NCBI GenBank assembly: GCA_017463585.1
Contig: JAFTOX010000007.1
Coordinates: 35,533-99,532 of the forward strand
DNA length: 64,000 bases
Direction: 5' to 3'
DNA from: Rikenellaceae bacterium
Lineage (GTDB): Bacteria; Bacteroidota; Bacteroidia; Bacteroidales; Rikenellaceae
Position 1 is the first letter of the stretch. Every line of letters begins with the position of its first letter. Made by a program: the position numbers and the translations under genes. Below, piece after piece: positions 2,459 to 19,050 of this stretch. The notes under the pieces are model-generated. The model made no database searches. It had not been told where the DNA came from and was given only the letters and a program-made list of their open reading frames with translations.

Positions 2459-3784
2459 TTAGGCCTCAACCTCCTCGCGCTTCTCGCGAACGAAGGCTAC
2501 CGACACGGCTGCCAGCAACATAAATACGCCCGCCAAAGCCAACATACTCATCGGCGACGAACCGAACAGATGCTCGACGATCATACCGCCCGTCAAACCG
2601 ATAACGATCTGCGGAATGGTGATCGTAAAGTTGAAGATACCCATATATACACCCATACGACGTGCATCAACCGCGCGCGAAAGGATTGCATAAGGCATTG
2701 CCAGAATACCAGCCCAAGCCACGCCGATACCCACCATCGGGATCATCTGCGCATATTGGTCGGTAGTAACACACAGACCCAAGAAACCGAGCGCACCGCA
2801 CAGCAGGCACAGAGCATAGACCAGCTTATTGCCCCAACGAGCAGCGATCTTGTCGATGAACAGCGCAGCGATACAAGCCGGAATGGGATAGATACCGTTG
2901 AGCACGCCTACCCACGTCTGGGTCTGACCGGCCGAAAGCAGTTCGCCCGTCTCGTGGCTCACAACCACACCCGTAATTGCGGGTTTGAGGTAGGTCCACA
3001 TCAGGAACAGAGCTGCCCACGAGAAGAACTGCACCACGCCCAACTGCAACATCACCTTAGGCACGTTGCGCAGCAACTCAACGAACGACGGCTTATGCTC
3101 GTCTTCGGCCTCAACGGGCTGGTTGTTGTAGCGAGCAAACTCCTCGGGAGGATACTCCTTGGTGCGGAATACGGTTACCAGAACGGTTGCCAACAAGATT
3201 GCACCACCGATGTAGTACGACCAAGCGATGTGCTGGGGTACTTGACCGGGGATCACCTCGTCCGACACACCGCAGTGGGTCAGAATCAGCGGCAGCACAG
3301 CACCGACAACGGCACCCAAGTTGATCAGGAAGGTCTGCACGACATAGCCCTTGGTCTTCTGCGAGTCATCGAGCATATCGGCCACCAGCGCGCGGAAGGG
3401 CTGCATCGTTACGTTGAACGAGAGATCCATAAAGAGCAGGATCAATGCACCCATCAGCAGCGGAGCGAATGCCAACAGAATCGGAGCGTTGGGCATCAGT
3501 GCCAAAGCCACTGCCGAGATGATCGCACCACCCAGAATGAAGGGGATACGGCGACCCAAGCGGGTCCAAGTACCGTCCGAGAACAGACCCACGATCGGCT
3601 GAATTACCAGACCAGCAACGGGGGCTGCCAACCAGAAGTAGCTCAGGTGCGAAAGGTCGGCACCGAGCGACTCGAAGATTGATGAAGTGTTCGAGTTTTG
3701 GAGTGAATAGCCAATCTGAACTCCGAGGAATCCGAAGCTAAGGTTCCAAATCTGCCAGAACGAAAGTTTAGGTTTTTTCTGCAT
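2459..3784 (-). CDS. MFS sugar:H+ symporter, maltose/sucrose (SLC45/MalT-like) family
   Basis: KLSFWQIWNLSFGFLGVQIGYSLQ, QPIVGLFSDGTWTRLGRRIPF, QPFRALVADML, GVYMGIFNFTITIPQI; about 12 hydrophobic segments; directly upstream of susC. Confidence 0.88.
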   Translation of the reverse strand: MQKKPKLSFWQIWNLSFGFLGVQIGYSLQNSNTSSIFESLGADLSHLSYFWLAAPVAGLVIQPIVGLFSDGTWTRLGRRIPFILGGAIISAVALALMPNAPILLAFAPLLMGALILLFMDLSFNVTMQPFRALVADMLDDSQKTKGYVVQTFLINLGAVVGAVLPLILTHCGVSDEVIPGQVPQHIAWSYYIGGAILLATVLVTVFRTKEYPPEEFARYNNQPVEAEDEHKPSFVELLRNVPKVMLQLGVVQFFSWAALFLMWTYLKPAITGVVVSHETGELLSAGQTQTWVGVLNGIYPIPACIAALFIDKIAARWGNKLVYALCLLCGALGFLGLCVTTDQYAQMIPMVGIGVAWAGILAMPYAILSRAVDARRMGVYMGIFNFTITIPQIVIGLTGGMIVEHLFGSSPMSMLALAGVFMLLAAVSVAFVREKREEVEA

Positions 3785-3807
3785 AATAGTGTAAAAATTT
3801 AGCTATA

Positions 3808-3815
3808 CAAATTTA
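3808..3815 (-). promoter_or_regulatory. Bacteroidota sigma-A -7 element (TAAATTTG) for the MFS/susC transcript
   Basis: Matches TAnnTTTG on the minus strand, 24 nt upstream of the MFS ATG. Confidence 0.7.
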
Positions 3816-3845
3816 TAATAGCATTTCCAAACCACCAATCTCAGT

Positions 3846-3898
3846 CCGACGAACGGCAAAACAAAACCGACGAACGGTCGATTTGGACGGACGAGTGT
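3846..3898. promoter_or_regulatory. Direct repeats CCGACGAACGG with 21-bp period; putative LytTR operator
   Basis: Exact copies at 3846-3856 and 3867-3877, degenerate third copy at 3888-3898; lies between the MFS promoter and the LytS/LytTR genes. Confidence 0.65.
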
Positions 3899-4058
3899 TA
3901 CGATCTAAAAAAATAAAGCGCCGTTTTCGCAACAAGATTTGGAGATTCAACAAAAAAGCCCTACCTTTATTGTCAAGATTGGACTCGACCACGAGCATCG
4001 AAACCACCAGCGATTGATCGAACCGACCGACAAGAGAGCCGTTAATGCACAACCGAGT

Positions 4059-5432
4059 ATGAAGAGAATTTCGTTTTCGACACCCGCGACAATCCACCTG
4101 TTCGCCATAGCGCACGCCGCCATCGCCGTAATCAGCCGCTTGGTCGATTATATGGACGACGTGCCGCTGACCGTGCTCACAATCTTGATGATCGTGATCA
4201 TCGCAATCCGCCAACGAATGCAGACCGAGATTACAGCAATGCTGACACTCGTCGGTACGTTCTCGGGCTACCTGCTTGGCACCTACGGAGCTACGCTCGT
4301 GTCAAGCGTCGTATCGAACCCCACCGCCGCCTCGGCCATAACCACCGCCATCGTCACCGAATTGCTCGGTTGGTCGGTCTATGGCATCTCCTCACTCAAA
4401 AGCCTCCGCTCGATGCACGCCAATACGTGGAGCCCTTCGATCCCGCAGCTGGCTCTGGTCGCCGCCGCAATTCTGTTGCTGCGCGTTTCGTATTCGCTCA
4501 TCTTCAACTCGTCATACTTCTCGCAATCGAGTATCTACCCCGAGTTCAACCGTATGATGAGCAACACATTCGCAATGGTCGTGCTCGTCTGCGGCAACGT
4601 GATTCTGGTCGGGTTCGGACGACTGCCAAAACGTCTGCGTGATTTGCAAAATGCGCTGAACGTAATCCTCGTCACGCTCTTCTCGGTTGCCATCACCTTC
4701 ATCGTCTACTACGACCTGCCCAGCGGCGGCGAGAGTATCTTCGCAGGACTACCCTTCTTGCGTCAATATGCCGTTGTGTTGCTGGCCGATATGGTTGTGT
4801 TTGCGGTCTTTACGCTGATTGGCCACCTCTACACCTCGCAGGACGAGCTGCGTACCGAACGAGGCAAAAAGCACCTCGCGCAGTTCCAATACAACAAGCT
4901 CAAAATGCAGATCAACCCCCATTTTCTGTTCAATTCGCTCAATATTCTCGACTATCTGGTGCAGGAGGGACAGACCGAGCGCGCGAGCGCATTCATTCGT
5001 AAGCTGGCCGATTCGTATCGCTATATGCTCAAAACCGAGGACGAACCTCTCGTTACGTTGCAAGAGGAGATCGATTTCGCCCACAAATACTCCGAGCTAC
5101 TGCAAGAGCGTTTTGCGAGTGGCTTCACTGTTCACTATCAGATTGACGACCAACTACTTAGCCGTAGCATTGTGCCGTGTTGTCTGCAACTTCTCATCGA
5201 GAACGCCACCAAGCACAACATCGTCAGCCCCGAGCGTCCGCTGACCATCTTCGTCTGCGCCGAGGGCGACACGCTGACCGTGCGCAACAATATCCAACCG
5301 CGAATTACCGCCCAAGCCTCGACGGGCACGGGTCTGAAAAATATCCGACAACAATATCTCGACATTTGCAATCGTCCGATCTCGGTCGAAAAGACGCAAA
5401 GTGAATTTATCGTAAATATACCACTACTATGA
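4059..5432 (+). CDS. LytS-family sensor histidine kinase (His_kinase PF06580 type) with a multi-TM N-terminus
   Basis: LKMQINPHFLFNSLN, VPCCLQLLIENATKHN, STGTGLKNI; the ATG at 4059 (MKRISF) is preferred over the ORF-track TTG at 3939. Confidence 0.92.
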   Translation: MKRISFSTPATIHLFAIAHAAIAVISRLVDYMDDVPLTVLTILMIVIIAIRQRMQTEITAMLTLVGTFSGYLLGTYGATLVSSVVSNPTAASAITTAIVTELLGWSVYGISSLKSLRSMHANTWSPSIPQLALVAAAILLLRVSYSLIFNSSYFSQSSIYPEFNRMMSNTFAMVVLVCGNVILVGFGRLPKRLRDLQNALNVILVTLFSVAITFIVYYDLPSGGESIFAGLPFLRQYAVVLLADMVVFAVFTLIGHLYTSQDELRTERGKKHLAQFQYNKLKMQINPHFLFNSLNILDYLVQEGQTERASAFIRKLADSYRYMLKTEDEPLVTLQEEIDFAHKYSELLQERFASGFTVHYQIDDQLLSRSIVPCCLQLLIENATKHNIVSPERPLTIFVCAEGDTLTVRNNIQPRITAQASTGTGLKNIRQQYLDICNRPISVEKTQSEFIVNIPLL

Positions 5433-6211
5433 GAACCTATAATGTACTAATCATCGAGGACGAGATCCCCGCACAAGCCAACCTCCGCCGCGCCATCGAA
5501 CGACAGTTCGACGATCTGCGCGTGGTGGGTGTCGAGAGCTCGGTTTCGGGCGCTGTGGCGTGGCTCGGCGAGGAGCAGAACGTGGCCGATATAATCTTTA
5601 TGGACGTCGAACTTTCTGACGGTTCGTGTTTCGACATTTTCAAGCAGTGCCAAGTCAAGAGCAAGGTGATCATCACCACCGCTTTCGACAACTATGCCGT
5701 TCAGGCGTTCCGAGTGAATAGCATCGACTACCTGCTCAAACCGATTGACCCTGAGCTACTTCGTGCAGCTGTTGATCGCTGTCGCACCGCCTTGGAGGCT
5801 GCGGCGGGGAGCAGTGCACCGTTCAATTTCGAGGCTCTGCGCAACGCGCTCAACCCTGAGGCAAACTCGTACAAAAAGCGTTTTGTGGTCAAGTTTGGCG
5901 ACCGATTGTCGGTCATCGACACCTCGCAGATTGCCTATTTCTATGCCGAAGATAAGAGCAACTATCTGGTTACGACCGAGAACCGTTGCTACATTCTCGA
6001 TTCGTCGCTCGACACGGTGTCGGAGCAGGTTTCGCCCAACGATTTCTTCCGCATTTCGCGCAACTGCACGGTGGCAATTCGCTCGATTGCGGGCATTTCG
6101 AAGCACCCCTCAGGTCGCTTGAAGGTTCAACTCGAACCCCGCCCGAAGTTTGAGGTCTTTGTGAGTCGCTCGCGCACCGCCGACTTCCTGCAATGGCTCG
6201 AAGGCAAATAG
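5429..6211 (+). CDS. LytTR-family response regulator
   Basis: Receiver LIIEDE...DIIFMDVELSDGSCF...TTAFD...YLLKP; LytTR output FFRISRNCTV; 4-bp overlap with the kinase. Confidence 0.95.
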   Translation: MRTYNVLIIEDEIPAQANLRRAIERQFDDLRVVGVESSVSGAVAWLGEEQNVADIIFMDVELSDGSCFDIFKQCQVKSKVIITTAFDNYAVQAFRVNSIDYLLKPIDPELLRAAVDRCRTALEAAAGSSAPFNFEALRNALNPEANSYKKRFVVKFGDRLSVIDTSQIAYFYAEDKSNYLVTTENRCYILDSSLDTVSEQVSPNDFFRISRNCTVAIRSIAGISKHPSGRLKVQLEPRPKFEVFVSRSRTADFLQWLEGK

Positions 6212-6264
6212 CTCACTCACTTACGTTTTTGCAAAACTACAATCAACTATCCCAAACGAAAACA

Positions 6265-7431
6265 ATGCAGATTTTTAATTACATAATCCTGAGTGCGATA
6301 TTCTGTCTCACGCCCGCAGTTGTTCTGTGGCTCTGTCGTCGCATTCCGTTGCTCGGCAAGATTGGTCCGATTATGGTGCTCTACGCTATTGGTATGATCA
6401 TCGGCAACCTCCCATTCATTCCCGCCGAGATCAAACCGCTGCAAGATATGATCCCCAACGTGATGGTGCCGCTGGCAATCCCGATGATGTTGTTCGGTTG
6501 CACCTTCTCGCGCAACGAGATCCGTCTGCAAGTCAAGCTCTGCCTGAGTGGTTTTCTGTCGGTCTGTCTGGCGGTTGTGATTGGCTACCTCTTCTTCGGT
6601 CGCAATGTCGAGCAGGGAGCGCAGATTGGCGGTATTCTGTCGGGAATGTACACGGGCGGTATGGTCAATGCGGCGGCGTTGCAGGCAATCTTCCGCGTCA
6701 ATAGCGAGAACTACATCTTGATGAGTTCGTACGATATTATCATCTCGTTCCTCTACTTGGTATTTTTGTTGGGTGTGGGTATTCCGATGTTCCGTTATCT
6801 GTATGGTGAGCGCAAGCGCGAGATTCCGCAGAGCGAGCAGGAGGAGCTCGACCGCCAAGCAGAAAAGAGCAACGAAAACCCCTATCGCAAGCTGCTTACA
6901 CGCGAGGGCGTCAAGCAGTTAGGCAAGATTTTGGCTCTGACGCTGGCCATTGTGGCGGTGTCGGGCGGCGTGGGTCTGCTGATGAACGAGGGGTGGTTTA
7001 TGGTTGTGTTTATTCTGCTGATTACCACGCTGGGCGTCGTGGCGTCGTTCTTCCCTTCGGTGCGAAAGATGGATATGAGCTACGACATCGGAATGTATCT
7101 GATCTATATTTTCAGCATTACGATCGCCTCGATGGCCGATTTCTCGAATCTGCATCTGGCGGGCGGAGTTAATCTGCTGATTTTTGTGATTTTGGCGGTC
7201 TTCCTCTCGTTGGTTTTTCACGCTCTCATTTGCCGCTTGATGAAGGTCGATGCCGATTCGATGATAGTCTCGTCGGTGACATTTATCAACTCGCCTCCGT
7301 TTGTGCCTATGGCCTCGGCTGCGCTGCGCAACAAGCGTACGCTGGTCACGGGATTGAGCGCAGGTATCGTCGGCTACTCCCTCGGAAACCACTTCGGAGT
7401 GCTGATGGCAAAGTTGCTGTCGATGTTGTAA
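6265..7431 (+). CDS. DUF819-family multi-pass membrane protein
   Basis: About 11 TM segments; GMYTGGMVN and SPPFVP...AALRN...LVTGLSAGIVGYSLGNHFG motifs; start at ATG 6265. Confidence 0.75.
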   Translation: MQIFNYIILSAIFCLTPAVVLWLCRRIPLLGKIGPIMVLYAIGMIIGNLPFIPAEIKPLQDMIPNVMVPLAIPMMLFGCTFSRNEIRLQVKLCLSGFLSVCLAVVIGYLFFGRNVEQGAQIGGILSGMYTGGMVNAAALQAIFRVNSENYILMSSYDIIISFLYLVFLLGVGIPMFRYLYGERKREIPQSEQEELDRQAEKSNENPYRKLLTREGVKQLGKILALTLAIVAVSGGVGLLMNEGWFMVVFILLITTLGVVASFFPSVRKMDMSYDIGMYLIYIFSITIASMADFSNLHLAGGVNLLIFVILAVFLSLVFHALICRLMKVDADSMIVSSVTFINSPPFVPMASAALRNKRTLVTGLSAGIVGYSLGNHFGVLMAKLLSML

Positions 7432-11680: not shown

Positions 11681-11911
11681 TCACAACTCCACAATGTCGT
11701 ACCACCGCCGATCGACCTCCCGCCAGAACGCCCGCCCCTCGGGCGTAGCCTCCCACTCGAATGCCTGGCTCACAAAGTAGGCCTCCTCGCCCACCGACCA
11801 CAACTCCTCGTCGAGCGCCGTGCAGTCGTTGTAGAGGTAGAAGGCACGGTCGAATGCCACCTCGCAACCCTGCTCACGCAAGAAGGCCCGAAATTGTTGG
11901 TAGCGCGACAT
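11681..11911 (-). CDS. Small hypothetical protein (76 aa) with a C-terminal FxWxxTPEGxxFW motif
   Basis: ATG start, 43 bp downstream of the EVE-HD gene on the same strand; natural-looking composition; AFEWEATPEGRAFWREVDRRW. Confidence 0.7.
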   Translation of the reverse strand: MSRYQQFRAFLREQGCEVAFDRAFYLYNDCTALDEELWSVGEEAYFVSQAFEWEATPEGRAFWREVDRRWYDIVEL

Positions 11912-11954: not shown

Positions 11955-12929
11955 CTAATTTTCGAGCTGCGACAAGTAGCCCTCGATGAACGCCAACGCC
12001 CGGGTATGTTTCTCGACGTAACGCAGGTGGTTGCCCTCGCGTCCGCGTGCCAAGTTGTGACGTAAGTCGTTCATCTTGACGTTGATAGCCGTTTGATTTC
12101 CCGATCGGCAAATGCGCTCGATATACTCCTCGTAGGGCGTCTGCTTGTCGTGCGTCAGCAGTCGCAACGCCTCGATCACCTCCGCCGTAAAACCCTCAGC
12201 CTCGATGTCGTCGAAATCGTAGTCGGTATCCTCGACCACATCGTGCAGAAAACCGACAATGCGCTCAGCGTCGTTGCGCCCCATCATACCAACAGCCAGC
12301 GGGTGCAGAATGGTCGGATTGCCGTCCAGATCGTAGTCCGCAGCGTGTGCCTTCGACGCCAATTCGATCGCCTTGTCGATGTCCGAACGCAGGTCGTAAT
12401 CCTCGTTGCGCACCGCCCGAGGCAGGTAGAACGACTTGTTGCGACCGATGTAGTCGCGCCACATAAGCTCCAAGTGCTCAGCCGTTTGACGTTCGAGCAA
12501 CACGCCCGAATGACCGTGTACCCAATCCACGTCGGGCAGTTCCTCGGTCAGCTCCTCAATCGAGATAATATCGGCACGCTCGGGGTGGAACACAGCCTCA
12601 AACTCCATCTGCATATAGTAGACCTCACGCCCCTTGCCCGTCCAATCTTCACCCTTGAACGGCTCGGAGGTGAACCTACCTGCGGCAAACACACCCGTGT
12701 TCCCCTCCCCGACACGCACCATAAAAAATCGATCACCACGTCGCGCCTGCTGCCACTCGTGCACACTCCAATCGAAATCACAATCCCACAGCCCGCGAGC
12801 CCACGCGTCCATATCCTCGTCCAAACGTCCCATCGTGTAGGACGAAATCGCAGGATTCCACCTCAGCAAGAAGGTGTTATGAGCATAGTCGCAACGTCGA
12901 TTGATCGACAATTTAATCTCCATTTCCAT
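11955..12929 (-). CDS. Fusion of an EVE-like (PUA-superfamily) domain and a small HD phosphohydrolase (Mesh1/SAH-like)
   Basis: N-half LLRWNP...DWSV...RGDRFFMVRVG..GVFAAG..TSEPF...YMQMEF...HSGVLL; C-half AIELASKAH...HPLAV...LHDVVEDT...ALRLLTH...VKMNDLRHNL. Confidence 0.75.
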   Translation of the reverse strand: MEMEIKLSINRRCDYAHNTFLLRWNPAISSYTMGRLDEDMDAWARGLWDCDFDWSVHEWQQARRGDRFFMVRVGEGNTGVFAAGRFTSEPFKGEDWTGKGREVYYMQMEFEAVFHPERADIISIEELTEELPDVDWVHGHSGVLLERQTAEHLELMWRDYIGRNKSFYLPRAVRNEDYDLRSDIDKAIELASKAHAADYDLDGNPTILHPLAVGMMGRNDAERIVGFLHDVVEDTDYDFDDIEAEGFTAEVIEALRLLTHDKQTPYEEYIERICRSGNQTAINVKMNDLRHNLARGREGNHLRYVEKHTRALAFIEGYLSQLEN

Positions 12930-12972: not shown

Positions 12973-13009
12973 CAAAGGTATCGGCCGTTTTTGACAATTA
13001 GTGTCAAAA
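12973..13009 (-). promoter_or_regulatory. Promoter (-7 TACCTTTG, 12973-12980) with palindromic operator TTTTGACA-N5-TGTCAAAA (12989-13009)
   Basis: Perfect 8-bp inverted repeat with 5-bp spacer, 8 nt upstream of a consensus -7 box pointing at the EVE-HD gene. Confidence 0.8.
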
Positions 13010-13054: not shown

Positions 13055-13089
13055 AAAAAATCCCCGCAACCACTCTCTTGTTGCGGGGA
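13055..13089 (-). terminator. Intrinsic terminator of the WYL gene, overlapping a second promoter unit
   Basis: Minus strand TCCCCGCAAC-9nt-GTTGCGGGGA-TTTTTT. Confidence 0.8.
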
Positions 13090-13125
13090 CAAAATTACGG
13101 GTCGATTTTGACAATTACTGTCAAA
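13090..13125 (-). promoter_or_regulatory. Second promoter/operator unit (-7 TAATTTTG, 13090-13097; TTTGACA-N5-TGTCAAA within 13106-13125)
   Basis: Same palindrome core and same 8-nt gap to a TAnnTTTG box as the unit at 12973-13009. Confidence 0.72.
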
Positions 13126-14176: not shown

Positions 14177-14196
14177 TTTGACATACGTTTGTCAAA
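14177..14196. promoter_or_regulatory. Third TTTGACA...TGTCAAA palindrome (6-bp spacer) in the WYL/CHASE2 divergent region
   Basis: TTTGACA-TACGTT-TGTCAAA. Confidence 0.5.
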
Positions 14197-14395: not shown

Positions 14396-15616
14396 ATGAG
14401 TACTAAAAATAAAACCACTGAGAGTGGTTCCACTTTTTGGGCTGCATACAAGTCCGAATTCAAGGTGGCGGTTATTGTGACAATCATCACAACAATCTTC
14501 GCTTTGGCAGGTGGAAACTTTATTATGGGGTTGTTCTCTCCGATTTCGGGCAATAGCGACTTCCAATTTTCGGATCTCTATTGCAAGGTTGCAAACAAAT
14601 TGGAGGATAATCCCAACAGTCGCAACATCACCATCATTGCCACCGACTCGCTCATCGAGCGTGAGCACTTGGCCGAAGCGATTGATTTCATTGGTCAGTT
14701 TGGTCCGAAAGTTCTGGGTATCGACATTCATTTCGCACAACCGCAGGATAGCCTGAGCGACCTGATGTTGATCTCGGCACTGAGCAGCTGCAATTGCAAT
14801 CTGGTCTTCCCCAACCCGCTCTACCAAGACGAATTCGGACATATACAAGAGGATCAGAAAACTTTCCTTAGCCCATTCCTGTCGAACGCTTCGTACGGCG
14901 CTACAAACTATACGATCAACTCGAATTGGGGTCCTACGCGCAAATTCGAAACCTCGTTCGATGGTGAGTTCGAGGCATTTCCGTCGTTTGCGTCGGAGAT
15001 AGCACGCATAGTCAACGAGGATCAGCACTACGCCCTGCTGGCCCGCAACGTGAAGTATGAGCGCAAATGGGAGTATATCAACTACATCGTTTCGCAGGGT
15101 TTCGACACACGTGTACTGACATTGCAGGACATCAGCGACCCCGACAAATATGCCGACTATGAGCACCTGATCAAGAATCGCATTGTGTTGCTCGGCGACA
15201 TCTACAACCCCAACGATATGCACACCACGCCGTACGACAAAGCGGTGGCAGGTATCTACATACACGCGCACGCGCTGGATACGATTCTTCAAGGTGCATA
15301 CTACCAAGAGATTCCCAAAGCGCTGCTGTACGTCATTTCGATAATCTGCTGTCTGCTCTTCACCTCGTTCTCGCTCGCGTTGAAGGAGTCGCACAAAGAG
15401 GTAAGCGGTCTGGTAATCCGTATCACGCAGGCAGTTTTGATGCTTTTGATCTACTGGATCGGCTGCGAACTCTATCTGCAACAGATCTATTTCGACCCCG
15501 TCGTGCTGATCCTGATGATCGTTGCCATTCCGTTCACGACAGATATCTATCAAGGAGCAAAGGGTTTATATCACAACATAATCAGAGAATTAAAGAAAAG
15601 GTTAAAGGAGAATTAA
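14396..15616 (+). CDS. Stand-alone CHASE2-domain membrane protein (no cytoplasmic output domain)
   Basis: N-terminal TM; GPKVLGIDIHF; IKNRIVLLGD...DMHTTP...AGIYIHAHALDTIL; three C-terminal TMs and a short basic tail; TACCTTTG -7 box at 14356-14363. Confidence 0.85.
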   Translation: MSTKNKTTESGSTFWAAYKSEFKVAVIVTIITTIFALAGGNFIMGLFSPISGNSDFQFSDLYCKVANKLEDNPNSRNITIIATDSLIEREHLAEAIDFIGQFGPKVLGIDIHFAQPQDSLSDLMLISALSSCNCNLVFPNPLYQDEFGHIQEDQKTFLSPFLSNASYGATNYTINSNWGPTRKFETSFDGEFEAFPSFASEIARIVNEDQHYALLARNVKYERKWEYINYIVSQGFDTRVLTLQDISDPDKYADYEHLIKNRIVLLGDIYNPNDMHTTPYDKAVAGIYIHAHALDTILQGAYYQEIPKALLYVISIICCLLFTSFSLALKESHKEVSGLVIRITQAVLMLLIYWIGCELYLQQIYFDPVVLILMIVAIPFTTDIYQGAKGLYHNIIRELKKRLKEN

Positions 15617-15632
15617 AAAAACAAGTAATACT

Positions 15633-16463
15633 ATGAAAAGCTACATTACACTATTAATTACACTCTTGTTCTCGGCGAGCGTTTGCGCTCAATCGACAGG
15701 CGCAGCCTACAAGATCAAGAACATCTCGGGTGGCGCCACGCTGATGGTAGGCAAAACGGAGAAGCATTTGCAGATTGGCGACGTACTGCGTCTTTCGGAC
15801 CACATCAAGTTGCAGAGTGGCAGCAAGATCACCATTATGCAGATCGAACGACCGAACAAGGTTTTCAGCTATGCCGATAGCGACGTCAAATCGGTCTATC
15901 ACATCATTCTCGATTCGAGCGACAAGAGCAACAGCACCTTCCGCGAAATGTGCTCAACCGTAGTAAGCCACAACAAAAAGGAGACAAAGAGTATCATCTC
16001 TCGCCCGTTGCAGGTTGAGCGTGGTCAAGATGAGGTGAACAACGCCTACGATGCGCTGGTCTATTCGGCAATTAAAAAGTCGATTAAGGATCTGCTGAGC
16101 AACTCGCTCTCGAAGGATCGTGCCGATGTCGAGATCTCGCGCACGGCGGTGGTTGACGACGAGTTCTCGTTCATTCTCCGCAAGAAGAGCGCAACGGCAC
16201 AGTATATCAACATTCTCTATGTCGATACTCAGGGCAACTACGACTTTTGCTTCGATGACAATATTCTGATCGACGGCAAACTGAAAAAGGATTGCGATAT
16301 GCAATTCAAATTCGACGCGTCGAGCAGCAGTCTTACCTTTATGGTTATCGCCACCTCGCAGAACTTTGACGTCGAGAACGTCCGAAAGTCGATTAGCGCC
16401 GAGGAGGCTGCATCATTCATAATCATTGATCAAGAGAACATTATCGTCACACTCGAAAGATAG
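15633..16463 (+). CDS. Secreted hypothetical protein (N-terminal beta-rich domain, C-terminal Ig-like/DUF4384-like domain)
   Basis: Signal peptide MKSYITLLITLLFSASVCA-Q; lies between the CHASE2 and CHAT genes with 16- and 7-bp gaps; domain calls tentative. Confidence 0.6.
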   Translation: MKSYITLLITLLFSASVCAQSTGAAYKIKNISGGATLMVGKTEKHLQIGDVLRLSDHIKLQSGSKITIMQIERPNKVFSYADSDVKSVYHIILDSSDKSNSTFREMCSTVVSHNKKETKSIISRPLQVERGQDEVNNAYDALVYSAIKKSIKDLLSNSLSKDRADVEISRTAVVDDEFSFILRKKSATAQYINILYVDTQGNYDFCFDDNILIDGKLKKDCDMQFKFDASSSSLTFMVIATSQNFDVENVRKSISAEEAASFIIIDQENIIVTLER

Positions 16464-16470
16464 CATTCGT

Positions 16471-19050
16471 ATGAAACGTGTTGTTAGGGCTATTCTCATT
16501 TCGGTTTTGATCTTTGGACAGTGCGAGTTGGGCTTTGCGCAGGAGATGTCGATCAAAGATCAGATTAGCATTCACGCTTTCCAATATAACCAGGCAATCA
16601 TAGCCCATAACTACTCTAAGGCCATCGAGCACCAATTTGCAATCGCAATGCTCCACGCTCAGGACTATGGCGAGGACCATATTAAATATGCGATCGAGTT
16701 GGGCAAACTCGCTCGACTCTATTCCCATATCGGCGATATCGAACAAGCTCGCGAATACAATCGTCAAGCGATCGGCATAATGGAGGCAGGCGGTCATCAG
16801 AAGGAGAAGAATTATATCACGATGATCGAGGATATGGCGAGCTGGTGCATTCAGGTTGGCGATAACGCTGGCGCTGAGCACTATACGCTCGTGGCCGAGA
16901 AACTCGAAAAGGAGTCAGGTGTGGCTGAAAAGAGCCCGGTACGTCTGTTCAATCAGGGCAGATTGCTTTTGAACAACAAGGATTACAAAGGAGCTCTGGC
17001 GAAATTCGAAGAGGCAAAAAAACACTCCACTCCCGGCTCGACGCAATATGCCACGATCATCGGCACAATCGGCGACGTTTATGGCGCTATGGGCGATTCG
17101 GACACTGCCCTCCAACACTACACCGAGGCTACCGATATGTTGTTCGAGCAGGAGGATCCCAGCCTTCTCGAATATAAGAACTATGCGACGCTGCTGCATA
17201 ATATCGGCGTTGAGTACCTCAATATGAGCCAATACCAATTGGCATACGAGTGCTTCCTCCGCACAAAGAATGTGCAGCAGGAGTTTATGGGCAACGAGCA
17301 CCCCGACTATACCCGATCGCTGCACGGTCTTATACAGGTGGCTCGTCCGCTTGGCGTAAATTACACAGACTATGCATTCGAGCTCTACAATAATTGTAAG
17401 AACGAAATCCGCAAGAACTTCCGCTTCCTGACCGAGAAGGCACGCGAGCAGAATATCCACAACATCTACGACGACTACTTCAATACGCTTTACGCGGCAG
17501 CTCTGTACAAGACAAGAGTGCATATGCCCGATATGGCGAAGCTGTTGTACAACACCGCTCTATTGTCGAAGGGTCTGTTGCTGAGTACCTCAATCGAGTT
17601 CAAGCAGATGATCGAGGAGACCGAGGACCCGCTGATGTTGGAGAAGTACAACGATCTGCGTAGCGTTCAACGACAGATCGATGCCGAAAAACAGAAACCT
17701 ATTAGCGAGCGTAGCCAACACCTCGCCTACCTCGAACAGCAGGCTCAACAGCTTGAAACCGAATTGATGCGCGACGTCAAGGCCATCGGCGACTACACCA
17801 GCAACCTCGACCTCACGTGGGAGGATATCGCTCAGTCGCCATATTTAGGTGCAAACGACGTAGCAGTCGAATTTGTAAATACCAGCAACGGCGCTCGCGA
17901 CTATGCAATTGCCGTTCTGCGAAAAGGCTGGCCCGCACCCAAAGTCTTTCCTATCGGCCGCGAACTCGATCTGATCTCGATGATCGGCTCGTCAGAGAAC
18001 CCCACAGGAGATTTAGACGTGGTTCAGAATGGAATCTACAACGACAACCGCCTCTACGAGAAGATTTGGGAGCCTATCAAAGATTATATCCACGAAGGCG
18101 ACCGAATCTATTTTGCACCTTCGGGTCTGCTGCACTCGGTGGCATTGGAGTACCTGCCCGTCAACAAGAAGGGCACGGTGCGTATGTGCGACATCTACCA
18201 GATGTTCCGTTGTTCGTCAACCCGCCGTATTGCATTTGACACCTTCCAGTCGGGCGTACCCGTTGCACACCTCTATGGCGACATCAACTACCAATTGAAC
18301 GAGATGGATATGCAGTTCCATCAGGACAATATCACCCGTGCAAATCAACTTCGTGGCAACGATGCCTCTACCGAAGCCTCTACGACCAGAGGTCTGAGAA
18401 GTATCAGCCGCCCGTCGAATACCTATTGGTCACACCTCGAAGGTAGCCGCAAGGAGATTGAGGAGATTGAACCACTGCTTAAATCAGCTCGCTCTATTAA
18501 TCTTTCGGTGGTAACTCACACCAAGTCGGCAGCAGTTGAAGGTAGCATTAAGGCACTTTCGGGCAAGCGTAGCAAGATTATTCACATCGCAACGCACGGC
18601 TACTATAACAACCAATCCGACGCCAATAACAAGGAGCACTCAAATTCGCTCACGCGTTCGGCACTGATCTTTGCAGGCGCAAGCAACGACAAACTCTATG
18701 AGGGTATGGACGATGGATATTTGACAGCCGAGGAGATCTCGTTGCTCGACCTGCGTGGCACCGACCTCGTCGTACTGTCGGCGTGCCAGTCGGGACAGGG
18801 TAAGGCTATTGGTGCCGAGGGTCTTGATGGCTTGCAGCGTGCATTCAAAAAGGCAGGTGTCAAGACGCTGATTGTGAGCCTTTGGGACGTTAATGATACT
18901 GTAACACAGAAGATTATGGTTTCGTTCTACAAGTATTATTCCGAGGGTTATAATTGGCGCAAATCGTTTGAGCTCGCCCTGGACGACATTCGCCGCAACC
19001 GCGAATATAAGGCTCCGAAATATTGGGCACCCTTCGTAATGATCGACTAA
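16471..19050 (+). CDS. Secreted TPR + CHAT (caspase-like, clan CD) protease
   Basis: Start MKRVVRAILISVLIFGQCELGFA-QE (signal peptide); TPR helices; catalytic IIHIATHG and LVVLSACQSG; GLQRAFKKAGVKTLIVSLWDVND; PKYWAPFVMID. Confidence 0.92.
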   Translation: MKRVVRAILISVLIFGQCELGFAQEMSIKDQISIHAFQYNQAIIAHNYSKAIEHQFAIAMLHAQDYGEDHIKYAIELGKLARLYSHIGDIEQAREYNRQAIGIMEAGGHQKEKNYITMIEDMASWCIQVGDNAGAEHYTLVAEKLEKESGVAEKSPVRLFNQGRLLLNNKDYKGALAKFEEAKKHSTPGSTQYATIIGTIGDVYGAMGDSDTALQHYTEATDMLFEQEDPSLLEYKNYATLLHNIGVEYLNMSQYQLAYECFLRTKNVQQEFMGNEHPDYTRSLHGLIQVARPLGVNYTDYAFELYNNCKNEIRKNFRFLTEKAREQNIHNIYDDYFNTLYAAALYKTRVHMPDMAKLLYNTALLSKGLLLSTSIEFKQMIEETEDPLMLEKYNDLRSVQRQIDAEKQKPISERSQHLAYLEQQAQQLETELMRDVKAIGDYTSNLDLTWEDIAQSPYLGANDVAVEFVNTSNGARDYAIAVLRKGWPAPKVFPIGRELDLISMIGSSENPTGDLDVVQNGIYNDNRLYEKIWEPIKDYIHEGDRIYFAPSGLLHSVALEYLPVNKKGTVRMCDIYQMFRCSSTRRIAFDTFQSGVPVAHLYGDINYQLNEMDMQFHQDNITRANQLRGNDASTEASTTRGLRSISRPSNTYWSHLEGSRKEIEEIEPLLKSARSINLSVVTHTKSAAVEGSIKALSGKRSKIIHIATHGYYNNQSDANNKEHSNSLTRSALIFAGASNDKLYEGMDDGYLTAEEISLLDLRGTDLVVLSACQSGQGKAIGAEGLDGLQRAFKKAGVKTLIVSLWDVNDTVTQKIMVSFYKYYSEGYNWRKSFELALDDIRRNREYKAPKYWAPFVMID

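Follow-up and report, generated by a model that had tools for sequence, protein, structure and literature searches.

An EVE-like domain joined to an Aph-type HD hydrolase in a WYL-associated gene module of a Rikenellaceae bacterium

The gene described here lies in a stretch of 64,000 nucleotides (nt) from a Rikenellaceae bacterium, a gut organism resembling Alistipes (GenBank assembly GCA_017463585.1, contig JAFTOX010000007.1, positions 35,533 to 99,532 of the forward strand), in the following called the window. It encodes a fusion protein of 324 amino acids (aa), in which an N-terminal EVE-like domain (N-domain) is joined to a C-terminal HD hydrolase domain (C-domain). Judged from sequence comparison and modelling, the N-domain belongs to a new, divergent EVE-like family outside Pfam EVE, and the C-domain is assigned by its residues to a distinct sister clade of Aph1, without a characterised member. 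The pairing of an EVE-like with an Aph-type domain has not been previously described, and represents a new architecture whose components are each of a known kind, namely an Aph-lineage domain, an EVE-like reader and putative WYL control. A published survey of the contexts of EVE domains (PMC7641849) contains none of the terms 'HD domain', 'phosphohydrolase', 'ppGpp', 'SpoT' and 'alarmone', and the paper describing the Aph enzymes (PMC10083569) makes no mention of such a pairing. Most likely, the protein would be a 3'-pyrophosphohydrolase guided by nucleic acid, with (p)ppApp-like nucleotides or pyrophosphorylated RNA ends as its substrates.

An earlier note, made from the DNA letters, had proposed that this open reading frame (ORF) encodes an EVE-like and HD fusion; the ORF is present, on the minus strand, and its features are listed in Table 1. 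Homologs of the fusion protein were collected by a word-indexed search, which found 890 of them; the 120 closest, which make up the listed set used below, are full-length and 72-98% identical to the query, and their named sources are Alistipes sp. Because of these homologs, the ORF is regarded as a genuine gene under constraint. Mean identity of the close homologs to the query is similar in the two domains, being 75% in the N-domain and 80% in the C-domain. The full-length AlphaFold model has a predicted local distance difference test score (pLDDT) of 86, and the two-domain layout is backed by both the model and the fold searches; the linker falls below the flanking domains in both pLDDT and mean identity. 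Among the 151 genomes sampled from the family, the fusion is carried only by the window's own genome, and the N-domain is present in 6 of the 301 genomes sampled from the phylum. The fusion is thus an accessory gene, with a variable wider neighbourhood.

The C-domain is recognised by Pfam only as HD_4, below threshold, and by NCBIfam through a partial spoT_relA match; its relatives bear the automatic Joint Genome Institute (JGI) name '(p)ppGpp synthase/HD superfamily hydrolase'. Among solved structures, the top sequence match is 7SMG, a '(p)ppApp hydrolase' (E 6e-16, 61.7 bits), with weaker matches to Rel enzymes (about 1e-8) and to Mesh1 (E 2e-3), the Mesh1 and small alarmone hydrolase (SAH) proteins scoring 20-24 bits. 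A Foldseek search with the model also places 7SMG first (E 1.5e-9, template modelling score (TM) 0.87, root-mean-square deviation (rmsd) 2.3 Å, 30% identity), with a superposition spanning 142 of 142 columns, as fits the compact Aph size; the Mesh1 and SAH structures reach TM values of about 0.5-0.6 only, that of Mesh1 being 0.6. The domain also matches phrog_990 with E 2e-33. The earlier note had called it Mesh1-like; on these figures its place is in the Aph1 lineage instead.

The protein in 7SMG is Aph1 (adenosine 3'-pyrophosphohydrolase 1) of Bacteroides caccae, founder of a family of (p)ppApp-specific hydrolases, and ppApp was hydrolysed by 12 of 12 tested Aph homologs, drawn from different clusters (PMC10083569). 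In the same work the family signature is given as D24, R96, D116, R119, K133 and Y134; D24 and R119 were found by mutation to set specificity, and D24R is part of the change that enables Aph1 to accept ppGpp. The (p)ppGpp hydrolases, compared with the compact Aph fold, have extra helices, and carry Arg at the position of Aph1 D24 (PMC10083569).

The signature was mapped by using HMMER alignments and a MAFFT alignment of 120 members of the fusion family. The catalytic residues H195, H209, H229-D230, D234, K285, D288 and N292 are shared by the query and 118-120 of the 120 close relatives, one of which is truncated, and E233 is invariant in an alignment of 11 sequences (A1). By its residues, the C-domain is a catalytically intact RelA/SpoT-type HD hydrolase; this agrees with the earlier note, whose quoted motifs, HAADYDLDGNPTILHP, LHDVVEDT and VKMNDLRHN, are all found in the translation. 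Aph1 D24 corresponds to D200, invariant among the 120 relatives, R119 to R297 (R or K in 116 of 120), R96 to R272 (R in 96 of 120) and K133 to K307 (K or R in all 120), so that R119, R96 and K133 are retained or conservatively exchanged. The substrate-side motif, for which Mesh1 and SAH proteins have h.xQ.RK.G.PY..HP, reads HAADYDLDG in the query and HSGQIDKAG in Aph1, and D-L-D stands in the query where (p)ppGpp hydrolases carry R-K/R-S. This motif, which had been singled out as altered, does differ from that of Mesh1 and SpoT, but is a normal Aph-type signature, because Aph1 D24 corresponds to D200.

The true departures from Aph1 are A294, H308 and a short loop, which had not been flagged, and which lie in the C-terminal motif (HNLARGR...KH in the query, DNMDITR...KY in Aph1). 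A search with the C-domain alone returned 832 proteins, most of them stand-alone, 140-205 aa long and 54-66% identical to the query; features were read from the 120 listed. All 120 show this 'KH' variant, and the sequences inspected also have the deletion of 4 residues. Since A294, H308 and the short loop are common to hundreds of stand-alone HD proteins, the variant pocket was not created by the fusion, and the idea of a pocket novel to this protein is not supported. Canonical Aph proteins with the full signature also occur in the same bacterial family (L016-L019 and L022). Three of these (L016, L018 and L019) are stand-alone and have a conserved C-terminal extension of about 60 aa, YSVYACRQEYPNAY.PWTE.ED.EL..., which received no family assignment.

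The N-domain is matched by no model of Pfam, NCBIfam or PADLOC, and the PHROG matches of the protein all fall in its C-terminal half; a comparison of its sequence profile with the Protein Data Bank (PDB) gave nothing significant. When modelled alone by AlphaFold, it has a pLDDT of 88.7 and a predicted TM score (pTM) of 0.84. Searched by Foldseek against the PDB, it finds as top placeable matches only PUA-like barrels of the EVE/YTH/ASCH class, the highest of them at E of about 1e-3 and TM 0.5-0.6, including 2EVE, 2AR1, 2GBS, THYN1 with 5-methylcytosine (5mC) DNA, Mmi1, YTHDC/DF, ZmASCH and VcaM4I. The EVE-like character claimed for this half is thereby borne out at the level of fold. A Tis1-like or other immunity fold was rejected on the same matches, all of which are of the EVE/YTH/ASCH type. 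The acidity of the domain was also considered as an argument against binding of nucleic acid, and rejected, true EVE proteins being equally acidic.

The profile of the N-domain finds Bacteroidota proteins of about 260-275 aa (E 1e-18 to 1e-32), in which the same domain is followed by an HNH nuclease (L010-L014, L023, L025 and L026; one of them has 423 aa, with an N-terminal extension). In these relatives Pfam HNH is above its cut-off, and Pfam EVE matches the N-domain below threshold, with 19.6 and 13.4 bits against a gathering score of 23 bits. The sub-threshold EVE matches of these homologs support the assignment of the fold to the EVE class. The relatives weakly resemble EcoKMcrA and a PADLOC type IV enzyme model. 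They carry the motif FIHVHHL...CPNCH..IH, and are probably modification-dependent restriction enzymes with a reader outside the Pfam models. In evolutionary terms, the description of the fusion as a protein whose 'nuclease is replaced by a phosphohydrolase' is therefore a fair one. The columns conserved in the N-domain are W24-N25-P26, W54-S55, G65-D66, G79, G84, W96, W136, S141-G142 and W157; in the alignment of HD-fused, stand-alone and HNH-fused members, conservation reaches 85% or more at 16 positions, of which 5 are Trp.

Relatives of the N-domain were collected by an exhaustive HMMER search over 1.8 billion representatives (E <= 1e-3), which yielded 1,379 representatives. The architecture counts rest on the best 150 of them: 33 consist of the domain by itself, and the others carry it at the N-terminus (61), at the C-terminus (49) or internally (7). 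The domain is a mobile module. Its partners include Aph-type HD domains, BspA-type leucine-rich repeats (LRR), a Cys-rich module and several families that are not recognised by the libraries; compared with Pfam, PHROGs, NCBIfam and PADLOC, almost all partner regions are unannotated, except for HD_4, BspA-type LRR and HNH. They were also considered as diverged copies of the N-domain, and this was rejected, the best match having E 0.29. Long BspA-type LRR partners occur in P0128, P0133 and P0232 (Pfam LRR_5), and in P0140 by clustering only. In P0125, P0174 and 12 others, the N-domain is joined to a short Cys-rich module with an HNH-like CxxC...CxxC spacing but without the catalytic histidines, which resembles a degenerate HNH.

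A canonical Aph domain accompanies this N-domain in P0126, P0141, P0145, P0177 (E 8e-34 to 7SMG), P0250 and P0259, and the 'KH' variant does so in the query family, P0159 and P0248. A 250-aa protein from another genome of the same bacterial family (L020, in the region G412:C3:36389-36877) combines a sub-threshold Pfam ASCH match (E 1.6e-3) with a canonical Aph domain bearing the full signature; if the ASCH identity, which is probable by sequence, is right, it would be an independent PUA-like-Aph fusion. Among viral proteins, the N-domain is best matched in structure by one from Podoviridae, of 308 aa, which carries a RelA/SpoT family annotation (E 5e-16, TM 0.81, 36% identity); the second-best match is an EVE protein. 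The C-domain has matches in 105 cultured phage genomes; cultured phages carry the HD half only, and the fusion is absent from the IMG/VR viral contigs, searched with the patterns of the family. Altogether, PUA-like readers have been joined to Aph-type domains repeatedly and independently. Two further proteins, P0134 and P0147, have the N-domain followed by an Aph-like domain without the HD motif (LCLYYLV in place of LLHDVVED), and are possible pseudo-enzymes.

The fusion gene belongs to a recurring module, made up of a WYL regulator, the fusion and an acidic protein of 76 aa, with a HIRAN gene between regulator and fusion as an optional member. A palindrome TTGACA-N5-TG(T/A)CAA, followed about 10 nt further on by TAnnTTTG, is found upstream of the fusion or of the HIRAN gene in every lineage examined, and is kept even where the upstream neighbour is a MarR, a TonB-dependent receptor or an ADP-ribosylglycohydrolase gene. 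The box TAnnTTTG, which corresponds to the Bacteroidota -7 promoter consensus and which TACCTTTG fits, is invariant in the alignment of four lineages. In the 2.1-Mb genome of the window, the perfect palindrome occurs only at the fusion locus, about 0.4 occurrences being expected by chance; no wider regulon was found in this genome by means of further perfect palindromes. The palindrome was also compared with the Bacteroidota SOS box and rejected as such, the published boxes being GGA-N5-TCC and CTAA-N5-TTAG. The third palindrome of Table 1, with an N6 spacer, may possibly be a site of autoregulation, to judge from its sequence. An identical imperfect palindrome, TTGACAACTTCTGACAA, with similar flanks, is found at G000 C1:15878 and C17:3603; this is probably a repeat that has nothing to do with the operator. 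The terminator-like hairpin behind the regulator gene was missed by a simple terminator scan, probably owing to its 9-nt loop.

The regulator matches Pfam helix-turn-helix (HTH) family HTH_11 above cut-off, WYL below threshold, and the PADLOC WYL model with E 9e-17 over residues 5-283; among solved WYL regulators, none matches its sequence significantly. Its copies, 79-83% identical, adjoin fusion homologs that are only 73-75% identical. This neighbouring regulator probably binds the TTGACA-N5-TGTCAA operator. WYL regulators of this type are reported to sense single-stranded DNA (ssDNA), arising from DNA damage or from phage attack, in damage and defence responses (PMC11662680, PMC9186387, PMC11804915).

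Homologs of the 76-aa protein (54-62% identity) begin 5-7 nt past the stop codon of the fusion in L061/62, L065/66 and L067. The family comprises 21 clusters, has weak PHROG matches without known function, and is partly missed by gene callers. In three lineages, the gene immediately upstream of the fusion encodes a stand-alone HIRAN protein, and in one of them an ADP-ribosylglycohydrolase gene comes before HIRAN. In L061/L062, a 225-aa gene with a von Willebrand A (vWA)-like metal-ion-dependent adhesion site (MIDAS) motif, DKSGSM, stands between HIRAN and the fusion (3318-3995), and Phage_CRI and DUF5053 genes are close by, suggesting a mobile-element setting. L065 encodes, 1.7 kb downstream of the fusion homolog (4902-7115, minus strand), a 737-aa phage-type MuF_C/LPD3 protein, in which Pfam finds no toxin domain. 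In the window, a cassette of CHASE2, secreted protein and TPR-CHAT genes (14396-19050) directly adjoins the module; the WYL and CHASE2 genes are divergent, with the N6 palindrome between them. Around P0361 (L068-L070), an operon contains two GmrSD_N genes, a stand-alone 'KH' HD hydrolase with an overlapping start, a 145-aa gene and an ADP-ribosylglycohydrolase gene, and has DEAD/PLD/DUF3427 as its neighbour. This setting is a candidate for a defence island, bringing together two 'modification-reversing' enzymes; the ADP-ribosylglycohydrolase partner also occurs in L004. The 145-aa gene was considered as a split-off N-domain, and rejected. Identical-scoring copies of a long RelA/SpoT homolog (RSH) gene, at near-identical offsets (G000 C8:1578-1919 and C27:1585-1926), are probably an assembly duplication.

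Table 1. Features of the fusion gene and of the adjoining module in the window. Positions are numbered from the first nucleotide of the window.
Feature	Position	Strand	Evidence
Fusion gene P0001, 324 aa, ATG start	11955..12929	-	ORF and translation, homologs, AlphaFold model
N-domain, residues ~16-165, predicted divergent EVE/PUA-like barrel	12435..12884	-	fold search, profiles, model
Inter-domain linker, residues ~166-182	12384..12434	-	pLDDT 70-80; mean identity 69%
C-domain, residues 183-324, predicted Aph1-lineage RelA/SpoT-type HD 3'-pyrophosphohydrolase, 'KH' sub-clade	11958..12383	-	7SMG, phrog_990, signature
Motif HAADYDLDGNPTILHP, residues 195-210	12300-12347
Motif LHDVVEDT, residues 228-235	12225-12248
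Motif VKMNDLRHN, residues 284-292	12054-12080
76-aa acidic protein, isoelectric point (pI) 4.3, conserved downstream partner of the fusion	11681..11911	-	ORF and homologs
Putative operator palindrome 2, TTGACA-N5-TGTCAA, before the promoter of the fusion gene	12991..13007	.	conserved in lineages examined
TACCTTTG, fits TAnnTTTG, 10 nt downstream of operator 2, 43 nt upstream of the ATG	12973..12980	-
Putative operator palindrome 1, TTGACA-N5-TGTCAA, just past the regulator stop codon	13108..13124	.
TAATTTTG, after operator palindrome 1	13090-13097
Terminator-like hairpin, TCCCCGCAAC-N9-GTTGCGGGGA then TTTTTT, after the regulator gene	13055..13089	-	read from sequence; conserved in alignment
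Third palindrome, TTGACA-N6-TGTCAA, upstream of the regulator gene	14178..14195	.
HTH-WYL-type transcriptional regulator, 300 aa	13156..14058	-	Pfam, PADLOC

In the proposed mechanism, the fusion would be a cytoplasmic two-domain enzyme. Its HD domain would act on adenosine-type substrates by stripping off their 3'-pyrophosphate, with ppApp and pppApp as the leading candidates. Its EVE-like domain would bind nucleic acid, or a base that is modified or flipped, thereby localising or gating the hydrolase. The promoter of the fusion, overlapped by the palindromic operator, would be under the control of the adjacent WYL protein, which would bind the operator and repress the operon until a nucleic-acid signal appears; the fusion would be co-expressed with the small acidic protein and, in sister lineages, with the stand-alone HIRAN protein. 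Its role would be inducible detoxification, or counter-toxin action, against adenosine 3'-pyrophosphorylating toxins of the Tas1/Apk and toxic small alarmone synthetase (toxSAS) types. Taken as a whole, this model, a (p)ppApp-type hydrolase with a reader under WYL control in a counter-toxin role, is put forward tentatively, with slightly less than an even chance of being right.

Several observations weigh against it. Some concern the pocket: Aph1 D116 is replaced by A294 and Y134 by H308, Ala and His being found in 120 of 120 relatives, and the loop between the two is 4 residues shorter than that of Aph1, so that specificity for (p)ppApp cannot simply be assumed; the text of the Aph paper (PMC10083569), its sequence datasets being outside this check, gives no sign that the 'KH' sub-clade was assayed. 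Others concern the N-domain. The query has no Pfam EVE match at E <= 1, and its matches to EVE-class folds are moderate (E 7e-4 to 3e-2, TM 0.4-0.6, identity 8-16%, rmsd 4.4-5 Å). The hhalign comparison of its profile with 30 bona fide PF01878 proteins gave 73% (P 3e-5, score 37.0), over the N-terminal 70 columns only. The controls scored far lower, the best of 40 column shuffles reaching 22.0 and the reversed profile 12.6, so that the match is a real, if half-length, link to EVE that also speaks for the fold; the alignment pairs WNP, GDRFFMV and GIVxxG of the N-domain with SEP, GDxVxFYHS and aiVG of EVE. Many partners of the N-domain are unannotated or of the BspA-type LRR kind, with no obvious fit to a nucleic-acid reader, and it is not evident why a hydrolase of small molecules should need such a reader. 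Finally, no (p)ppApp synthetase or toxSAS was found beside the gene in 8 neighbourhoods, and the RelA_SpoT synthetase matches of the window genome are long RSH proteins only.

The main alternative to (p)ppApp as the substrate is an RNA end, to which the changed pocket, the reader and the neighbouring HIRAN gene lend some appeal. The EVE-like domain would then dock onto tRNA or another RNA, and the HD domain would remove the 3'-pyrophosphate added to the CCA end by toxSAS enzymes (FaRel2, CapRel, PhRel), restoring aminoacylation, with (p)ppApp at most a side substrate. A pyrophosphorylated CCA end is chemically an adenosine 3'-diphosphate, like ppApp, and MESH1 and ATfaRel reverse the pyrophosphorylation of the tRNA CCA end (bioRxiv 10.1101/2021.04.30.441581). 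The replacements of D116 and Y134 and the short loop are near the substrate site (PMC10083569) and could make room for a polymer. Aph-type HD domains are found again and again with partners from two or three PUA-like families (EVE-like, probable ASCH and the HNH-type relatives), and HIRAN is a recurrent upstream neighbour. HIRAN binds nucleic-acid 3' ends; its described ligands are, however, DNA ends and not tRNA. The argument from the pocket is weakened by the hundreds of stand-alone HD proteins that have this pocket but no reader; the N-domain is also found with canonical Aph domains, and no toxSAS lies in the neighbourhoods examined. Repair of tRNA ends is considered rather unlikely. A similarly low probability is given to a broader form, a guided 3'-end repair enzyme, in which the EVE-like reader would bring the Aph-type HD domain to RNA or DNA ends that had been 3'-pyrophosphorylated or otherwise 3'-modified by toxSAS-like or phage enzymes, the cassette being an inducible module for end repair or anti-toxin defence.

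The protein might also do without guidance, as a plain orphan immunity or house-keeping (p)ppApp hydrolase, countering incoming (p)ppApp-synthetase toxins of the Tas1 type (delivered by the type VI secretion system, T6SS) or of the phage MuF-Apk2 type, with an N-domain serving for oligomerisation, stability or as a second, unrelated immunity module. Aph1 itself confers immunity through its enzymatic activity, and most Aph homologs have no toxin as a neighbour (PMC10083569); the accessory nature of the fusion, its variable neighbours and the one homolog near a MuF_C/LPD3 protein fit such a role, and so do the many unrelated, unannotated modules fused to the N-domain, as is often the case for immunity domains. 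The N-domain is, however, conserved to the same degree as the catalytic domain, has a reader-type fold without any Tis1-like or other immunity fold among its matches, and shares with its HNH-nuclease relatives a conserved set of Trp, Asn, Asp and Ser residues, which points to a retained ligand pocket. The dedicated operator and regulator argue for inducible rather than constitutive use, and such a role for the protein appears unlikely. It is more improbable that the fusion works in defence or counter-defence in the manner of type IV restriction, the EVE-like domain sensing modified phage DNA or RNA and activating the HD domain against a nucleotide signal or pool; this would make the infection abortive or, conversely, undo an abortive response that relies on an alarmone. 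The HNH-fused relatives do resemble modification-dependent nucleases, a stand-alone 'KH' HD gene is found in the operon of two GmrSD-type genes and ADP-ribosylglycohydrolase beside DEAD/PLD/DUF3427, and the WYL regulator is a feature that the module shares with several defence systems; the HD half is widespread in phages, at least one phage protein annotated as RelA/SpoT having the N-domain. No PADLOC model matches the fusion, though, no partner synthetase was found, and an RSH-type HD domain, acting on one class of nucleotide, is not an obvious killing effector. Least probable of all is a generic Mesh1/SAH-like enzyme, hydrolysing (p)ppGpp or acting as an NADPH phosphatase. The HD fold and the catalytic motifs are common to both, the matches to Mesh1 and SAH are significant though weaker, and the JGI name of the relatives points this way; Aph1 matches far better, in bits as in TM, the compact size is that of Aph, an Asp is kept where (p)ppGpp hydrolases have Arg, and the window genome already has long bifunctional RSH proteins.

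The proposed nucleic-acid-guided hydrolase is of interest in the context of bacterial and phage conflicts, where (p)ppApp and the pyrophosphorylation of tRNA are recently recognised weapons, and where the reversing enzymes have so far been known as single-domain proteins. The recurrent joining of readers to Aph domains, canonical and variant, with EVE-like and probably ASCH modules, in bacteria and in one phage, suggests that targeting or gating by nucleic acids occurs in some Aph-type hydrolases; if so, this would bear on the role of the Aph-family enzymes that have no toxin gene nearby. If guided 3'-end repair were the right explanation, RSH hydrolases would be bona fide RNA-repair enzymes with dedicated targeting domains, and the cassette of WYL, HIRAN, fusion and small protein would be new. 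The analysis also delimits an EVE-like family of about 1,400 representatives for which there is no Pfam model, a large 'KH' sub-clade of Aph-like proteins with a changed pocket, and a compact, probably WYL-controlled cassette with a clean operator.

Among known systems, the module is like those of the wHTH-WYL-WCX repressors CapW, DriD and PafBC (PMC11662680, PMC9186387, PMC11804915) in having an HTH-WYL protein of about 300 aa, and palindromes upstream of the target and of the regulator's own gene; its cargo belongs neither to the described defence systems nor to the repair genes, and binding to the operator is a prediction. The N-domain has the same fold class as EVE (PF01878; PSPTO5229, 2EVE; human THYN1, 5J3E), YTH and ASCH, and is similarly acidic to EVE; it differs from EVE in lacking a Pfam match and in its own motifs, RWNPxISS, WSV, EDWSG and DW..GHSG. 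The layout, an N-terminal PUA-like reader followed by a C-terminal catalytic domain, is that of the EVE-HNH restriction endonucleases (VcaM4I, 6YEX; PMC7897488); the fusion has no HNH domain and cannot cut DNA, because its catalytic partner is a pyrophosphohydrolase and not a nuclease. With ATfaRel and MESH1 (bioRxiv 10.1101/2021.04.30.441581) the C-domain has in common the fold of the HD superfamily and, by prediction, the removal of a 3'-pyrophosphate from adenosine; these are single-domain proteins without a reader, more distant in sequence than Aph1, and an activity of the fusion on RNA ends is hypothetical. Aph1 (PMC10083569) has a single domain, with a length of about 145 aa; it is reported to form a tetramer, and its gene adjoins that of a MuF toxin. 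The fusion differs from it by an additional N-terminal EVE-like domain and linker of 180 aa, by the lack of an adjacent toxin gene, by Ala for D116, His for Y134 and the shortened loop, and by 'D-L-D' in place of 'D-K-A' at positions 24-26; it resembles Aph1 in the compact HD fold, in the catalytic residues and in 4 of the 6 signature residues (D200, R272, R297 and K307).

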